64,000 nt of DNA from Escherichia coli (GTDB lineage Bacteria > Pseudomonadota > Gammaproteobacteria > Enterobacterales > Enterobacteriaceae). This document shows, in pieces, positions 60,114 to 60,557 of the stretch (positions are counted from its first letter, which is position 1; each line of letters opens with the position of its first letter). Location: assembly GCF_044324785.1 (NCBI RefSeq), contig NZ_CP172127.1, one strand, 5' to 3'. The position numbers were made by a program, and so were the translations under genes. Under the pieces are notes generated by a model. The model saw nothing but the letters and a program-made list of their open reading frames with translations, was not told the DNA's origin and ran no database searches.

Positions 60114-60557
60114 TCAGGGCAAGATTACGAAAGCCCGCTCCCCGCAAGGACTGACGCGAGAAATGACATAAATCGCTCCCCTGCGGCGACTCTTGTCATA
60201 AGAGTGCCGGAGCGTTTTTCCATCAATTACAATGACGTCTTTATCATCTGAAGAATGGCAGTCACGCATCCAGTTAATAAAGCACTCGTAAAATTTTTCA
60301 GGACTGATACAGGATACAACTCTGGCAATGGTATCGTGAACAGGAATACCATTTTCAAAATCACCATATTGCTTCAAAAAATCGAGATGAGTTTCCCCAA
60401 AATCCTCTATATCTTCCCAACCTTCTGCACCAGAAATAACGGCACAAATAGTCAACAGTAGAATATCTGACAATTTATGCTCCACTTTCTAGGCTTGTCT
60501 GTAATCGGGGATAATAGAAATATGTTCCATCAATTTTTTAAGTTCCATTTTGTTCTC
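60114..60557 (-). pseudogene. yhhI: Decayed H-repeat-associated (ISAs1-family) transposase remnant, yhhI-like
   Basis: N-terminal MELKKLMEHISIIPDYRQA ends at an in-frame TAG where intact copies have Trp; homology resumes (…[31 protein letters not shown]…) then is lost after about 120 codons. Confidence 0.6.

Follow-up and report, generated by a model that had tools for sequence, protein, structure and literature searches.

The window analysed here is a 64-kb stretch (64,000 nucleotides) of Escherichia coli DNA (contig NZ_CP172127.1). Towards its right-hand end, yhhJ (58836-59960, plus strand) and a minus-strand Rhs accessory region, both placed from the PGAP annotation of the near-identical strain N3 (NZ_CP031609), enclose the remnant of an H-repeat element (ISEc1, ISAs1 family) whose transposase gene is read on the minus strand. 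In alignment to K-12 the remnant occupies 60115-60692 and measures 578 bp, compared with 1,291 bp for the K-12 copy H-rptB, and it is the sole H-repeat sequence in the window. The K-12 length agrees with the reported length of the H-repeat.

Genomic neighbourhood and ends of the remnant

Across strains, the remnant keeps one and the same flank towards yhhJ, and its other flank is variable. In the window, in N3, and in ST38-type strains, the left neighbours are an IS630 fragment, a sel1-repeat gene, and an orphan Rhs tip; in strain EC556 the neighbour is an Imm57 pseudogene, and in JNE23-011 it is an intact ISEc1 copy, arranged in tandem at a distance of 47 bp. The IS630-family transposase fragment of the window (60684-60812, minus strand) abuts the left end of the remnant and is a second decayed mobile element at this place. 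According to PGAP, the fragment lacks both termini and has an internal stop in the near-identical N3, AST215, and ST38 records. The Rhs accessory array then continues on the minus strand with a 159-aa sel1-repeat ORF (60878-61357), an orphan Rhs C-terminal fragment (321-aa ORF, 61371-62336), yibA (HEAT repeat, 285 aa, 62378-63235), and the C-terminal end of an Rhs core that runs off the window (63241-64000). This layout is the usual arrangement of toxin tips with candidate immunity genes, and K-12 has yhhH and yrhC at the locus.

Divergence between the window and N3 was ~2-3% per 500 bp over rbbA and yhhJ and ~0.1% to the right of 59921 (8 differences in 59922-64000). We read this step as a probable recombination breakpoint where yhhJ ends at its 3' side (~59921), which may have brought in or preserved the Rhs-side segment. 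Rhs loci are mosaics in which downstream tips and H-repeats are reshuffled, and the pattern of neighbours seen here fits that picture. Elsewhere in strain N3, prlC (oligopeptidase A) is annotated as frameshifted (22824-24865 of the N3 locus, L004).

The intergenic stretch between yhhJ and the remnant (59961-60114) is 96% identical to K-12 and contains a half-REP motif, GCCGGATAAGGCG, at 60034, as well as an imperfect palindrome at ~59970-60003. The original prediction had placed a REP-like sequence here. One half-REP motif is indeed present, but it is not a full REP, and none is annotated at this place in MG1655.

Both ends of the remnant carry CAGGG. Read inward, the left (5') terminal inverted repeat is CAGGGAAAGATCACG (60678-60692, minus strand) and the right (3') one is CAGGGCAAGATTACG (60115-60129, plus strand), the latter identical to the right end of K-12 H-rptB. 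The two match at 13 of 15 positions, for which the chance probability (13 or more of 15) is 9e-7. These repeats were aligned by hand; their exact seeds are shorter than 6 nt, which is below the reach of the automatic inverted-repeat search. The left boundary at 60692 is independently backed by EC556, because homology to this strain, with its other left neighbour, breaks exactly there. We found no target-site duplication around the remnant, as its flanks (...CCGGTATT and CCCTTTAT...) are unrelated. A missing duplication would be expected if the left flank had later been replaced by recombination, since this flank varies among strains.

Transposase gene and its internal deletion

The DNA of the remnant was 94.5% identical to K-12 H-rptB over 531 bp and 97.9% identical over a further 47 bp. 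PGAP assigns the K-12 transposase to the ISEc1 family, and its label for full-length copies is 'ISAs1-like element ISEc1 family transposase'. Together with a match to the Pfam domain DDE_Tnp_1_assoc (E = 1.5e-34), these identities bear out the initial assignment to an H-repeat, ISAs1-like transposase. Judged by its sequence, the segment is a remnant of an H-repeat/ISAs1-family (ISEc1) transposase gene, a member of the family but a non-functional one.

The minus-strand ORF starts at an ATG (60548-60546) with a Shine-Dalgarno sequence, AAGGAG, upstream of it (60560-60555). Translation and BLASTP against K-12 YhhI place codons 1-19 (MELKKLMEHISIIPDYRQA) at 60492-60548, and they are followed by an amber TAG at 60491-60489. 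Past the TAG, the same frame goes on as KVEHKLSD... through codons 21-129 (60162-60488), which retain the native frame, and then, by translation and K-12 alignment, into an out-of-frame tail of 15 codons over the retained 3' end of the element (60114-60161), ending at a TGA (60116-60114). The interval first reported for this feature began at the last base of that TGA (60114) and ended at 60557, within the Shine-Dalgarno region and 9 nt before the ATG. With the stop read as tryptophan, the conceptual product shared 126 of 133 residues with K-12 YhhI (95% identity, E = 2e-94), and W20 of YhhI lay opposite the stop. Compared with intact homologues, the frame is thus disrupted twice, by the amber at codon 20 and by a frameshifting 713-bp deletion after codon 129.

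The N-terminal domain of the transposase is complete. DDE_Tnp_1_assoc (PF13808) matched residues 8-94 (~60267-60527) over its full 88-position profile, with 118 bits against a cutoff of 32.3. The catalytic domain DDE_Tnp_1 (PF01609), which K-12 YhhI carries at residues 102-343, had no Pfam match in the window product; this region falls almost wholly inside the deletion. Homology of the product to YhhI stops after codon 129, and tblastn found nothing beyond. This measured end fits the earlier estimate that homology is lost after about 120 codons.

Upstream of the ATG, the 5' non-coding leader (60549-60677, minus strand) contains the Shine-Dalgarno sequence and one weak sigma-70-like match (60590-60562). 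A promoter scan returned this one site compared with 3.1 expected in shuffled sequence, which is not significant, and a promoter and terminator scan gave nothing over shuffle expectation. The 144-bp non-coding part that includes the left inverted repeat (60549-60692) differs from K-12 H-rptB at 19 positions (13%), compared with 2.6% in the coding part. Similarly, 14 of the 16 differences between the EC556 allele and the window, the private base 60490 aside, lie in this 144-bp leader. The pattern of leader divergence suggests that H-repeat copies are mosaic or have undergone gene conversion with one another.

The downstream lesion became clear from alignment to the K-12 rhsB-yhhI-yhhJ locus, which fell into two collinear blocks. 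Window positions 60698-60162 correspond to 10229-10765 of the K-12 locus (94.2% identity) and 60161-59801 to 11479-11839 (96.1%), and between them exactly 713 bp of K-12 (10766-11478, from codon 130 into codon 367) are missing. In terms of the element itself (K-12 locus, L003, 10235-11525), H-rptB positions 1-531 are at 60692-60162 and positions 1245-1291 at 60161-60115, so that the remnant equals H-rptB minus 713 internal bp. The deletion junction is 60162|60161, and a base-by-base view allows at most 1 bp of microhomology across it. Since 713 = 3 x 237 + 2, the frame is shifted past codon 129 and runs into the 15-codon nonsense tail. Comparison with K-12 copies was the check first proposed for this locus, and it located both the TGG to TAG change and the deletion endpoint.

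The lesion had initially been described as a 3' truncation, with the rest of the transposase absent before the REP-like sequence. A loss of the whole downstream part, right end included, would agree with protein homology that ends at codon 129 and with the tblastn result, and the PGAP label also reads 'missing C-terminus'. The nucleotide alignment refutes this reading, to which we give next to no probability: the final 47 bp of the element remain at 60115-60161, identical to K-12 at 46 of 47 positions (97.9%). They include the terminal inverted repeat as well as the last 37 bp of the yhhI ORF, and the flank toward yhhJ is collinear with K-12. The statement about missing sequence therefore holds for the 713 bp but not for the end of the yhhI frame or the right terminus. 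The lesion is an internal frameshifting deletion that keeps both termini of the element.

Two other accounts of the junction were rejected. Microhomology-mediated deletion was set aside given the shared sequence of at most 1 bp, and we saw no evidence for slippage or inter-repeat recombination. Insertion of 713 bp into a short ancestor is implausible, as the missing piece is the conserved catalytic domain; the direction of the change is taken solely from comparison with full-length copies.

The deleted allele is widespread at a single place. Counting contiguous matches only, an 80-nt probe across the junction was found in 275 of the 5,426 complete RefSeq E. coli genomes of our collection (~5%), at one place in each and always on the chromosome. 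A 166-nt probe that included 20 nt of yhhJ-side flank also identified 275 genomes with one place each, the flank being present in every sampled row, and a third junction probe design identified 274. An earlier figure of 307 genomes was inflated by joined half-matches, and the contiguous junction stands at 275. Both halves of the junction probe matched non-contiguously in 32 genomes, within 540 bp of each other. PGAP annotates the deleted copies as 'ISAs1 family transposase; incomplete; missing C-terminus'.

With none of the three differently designed probes did we find the deleted form at a second site, and each genome holds a single copy beside yhhJ. In general, genomes that carry H-repeats are mostly multi-copy, with a median of 3 places for an 81-nt probe around codon 20 and 5 for the junction probe. 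Of the features that mark MITE-like elements, the remnant has both inverted repeats with the internal coding sequence lost, but multiple dispersed copies were not seen across the 275 genomes. The deletion is an old allele at a fixed locus, inherited or moved by homologous recombination, and the 578-bp form is without sign of mobilisation. The E. coli W genome paper states that transposition of H-repeats has yet to be observed (PMC3032704).

In JNE23-011 (NZ_AP045067.1; 4867-6782 of that locus, L009), the intact 1,291-bp ISEc1 copy and the 578-bp remnant have the same orientation and are separated by a 47-bp spacer that matches window positions 60693-60740, with a partial RhsC-type fragment upstream. 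We considered this strain as proof of H-repeat transposition and rejected it, as a different Rhs fragment occupies the far side of the intact copy, which points to a tandem or recombinant arrangement rather than a fresh insertion with target duplication.

The amber codon and its Dcm context

The TAG at 60489-60491 stands in place of Trp20 (TGG), and the changed base is 60490, a C to T change on the plus strand. As the original prediction had proposed, intact proteins have tryptophan here: the window has T at base 60490, whereas N3, AST215, and four further alleles (6/6 sampled) have C and therefore TGG. The change is the only difference from N3 in a 951-bp stretch and also the only one in the 1,394 bp of 59922-61315. 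Across the genome collection, an 81-nt probe around the base (60450-60530) found 15,289 places, spread over 4,931 genomes. No place matched at 100%; the best identity was 98.8% (one mismatch), and the exact 81-mer was present in 0 of 4,939 matching records. The amber allele is therefore absent from all 5,426 complete RefSeq genomes.

Inactivation had been attributed to the nonsense codon. However, 275 genomes have the deletion and none has the TAG, which points to the deletion as the inactivating event. The TAG is a recent, private, and probably neutral change in an already dead gene.

The sequence context of the change is that of a Dcm site. On the plus strand, 60489-60493 reads CTAGG in the window and CCAGG in the ancestral form, so that C became T at the internal, methylated cytosine. 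The 1,394 bp of 59922-61315 contain two CCWGG sites, which amount to four methylated cytosines, and a random substitution would land on one of them with p ~0.003. Amber hotspots at Dcm sites of lacI were reportedly described by Coulondre et al. in 1978. Deamination of 5-methylcytosine at CCWGG yields a CTWGG T:G mismatch, which is a substrate of Vsr very-short-patch repair (PMC2715241). From this context we infer that the amber probably arose by 5-methylcytosine deamination.

The same context raises the question of whether the strain truly has TGG, like N3, and the TAG is a sequencing or assembly miscall at CCAGG beside a real deletion. In E. coli, nanopore consensus errors arise mainly at Dcm motifs, which account for most nanopore-Illumina discrepancies (PMC8106442); base 60490 is precisely the methylated cytosine in such a motif, and the allele occurs in no other genome. 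On the other hand, the position is equally a genuine biological hotspot for C to T changes (PMC2715241). A search for systematic Dcm miscalling found 158 intact CCWGG sites and, among 617 substitutions relative to N3, no C to T change at a Dcm cytosine besides this one (1/617), a comparison with little power against an error rate of tens per genome. In addition, the 8 differences from N3 in 59922-64000 include 60490, so real substitutions between the two strains do occur in the region. We consider a miscall unlikely.

Origin of the remnant and comparison with known copies

Taken together, the remnant is very probably a non-functional H-repeat relic (ISEc1, ISAs1 family) at the edge of the RhsB-locus accessory region that faces yhhJ, shaped by an old deletion and then by a private amber. 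The suggestion that a mobile element is decaying at the Rhs locus was borne out, with a dead gene at that edge. In the sequence of events that we propose, 713 bp would long ago have been deleted from inside the element, essentially without microhomology, removing codons 130-366 and shifting the frame. The whole DDE catalytic domain would have gone with them, while DDE_Tnp_1_assoc at the N-terminus and the two terminal inverted repeats stayed. The allele would then have been passed on by inheritance or transferred by homologous recombination, always as one copy on the chromosome, reaching ~5% of E. coli genomes. More recently, and in the lineage of this strain only, the internal cytosine of CCAGG at 60489-60493 would have become T, a change expected from 5-methylcytosine deamination that escaped very-short-patch repair, turning Trp20 (TGG) into amber (TAG) on the coding strand. 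This order is suggested by allele sharing, with the deletion found in 275 genomes and the amber in none of them. On its own the remnant is unable to transpose, and we saw no indication of its movement by intact copies. As far as can be judged from the sequence, no activity is expected of the remnant or of any product that it might have.

Alternatively, the element could be domesticated or non-autonomous, with a 144-aa protein that would bind H-repeat ends and modulate ISEc1, or with intact copies moving the 578-bp unit like a MITE. Truncated transposase inhibitors are known to modulate transposition. Both inverted repeats are kept, the DDE_Tnp_1_assoc domain is complete, and the 144-codon frame (129 native codons and the 15-codon tail) is open in all six other sampled alleles. 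The allele also persists in 275 genomes, and most H-repeat-carrying genomes hold several copies (medians of 3 and 5 places). We nevertheless regard this alternative as very unlikely, as exactly one copy occupies the same locus in 275/275 genomes, with no target-site duplication and no significant promoter signal. The variable sites in seven alleles comprise ~5 non-synonymous and ~2 synonymous changes, which are small numbers and are as expected under neutral drift, and the window strain does without the ORF with no visible compensation. If such a function did exist, the amber in this strain would be a loss of it. More specifically, the 144-aa N-terminal-domain protein might bind H-repeat ends and dampen ISEc1 activity or recombination of Rhs tips, which would make this strain a natural amber knockout; we give this idea a similarly slim chance.

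Returning to the relic with an old deletion, its significance is small, and it is an ordinary dead H-repeat copy next to one of the Rhs loci of E. coli. Features of this kind are already known, and PGAP annotates the same pseudogene allele in hundreds of genomes; descriptions of defective H-repeats from Rhs loci reportedly go back to the early 1990s (Zhao et al. in 1993). For annotation, the appropriate entry at 60115-60692 is an IS remnant with an internal deletion and both ends in place rather than a 3'-truncated gene. As a marker, the junction of the 713-bp deletion tags lineages that have this edge of the RhsB locus, ~5% of complete genomes, ST38-type strains included. The private amber is a natural textbook case of a C to T change at a Dcm-methylated cytosine, and such sites call for read-level confirmation.

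Compared with the Dcm-site amber mutations of lacI, the change at 60490 shows the same conversion of CCAGG to CTAGG at the internal cytosine, creating a TAG. Here the TAG lies on the opposite strand and comes from TGG (Trp) rather than CAG (Gln). It also falls in an already dead gene, with no phenotypic consequence, and its mechanism is read from the surrounding bases.

The closest full-length relative is K-12 H-rptB/yhhI, at the end of the RhsB element beside yhhJ. The two share chromosomal position and orientation relative to yhhJ, a right flank that is 96% identical, matching terminal CAGGG inverted repeats, and residues 1-129 at 95% identity. The K-12 copy has the full 1,291 bp and an intact 378-aa ORF with both DDE_Tnp_1_assoc and DDE_Tnp_1, whereas the window copy is without the 713 internal bp and the catalytic domain and has the amber at codon 20. 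Their left neighbours differ as well, being yrhC and yhhH in K-12 and the IS630 fragment and sel1-repeat gene in the window. The N3 pseudogene AXA56_RS06115, the ST38 isolates, and 270-odd other genomes share the 578-bp element, its junction, and its place at yhhJ. In the alleles sampled from this group, codon 20 is TGG and the 144-codon frame is open, whereas the TAG occurs in the window alone.
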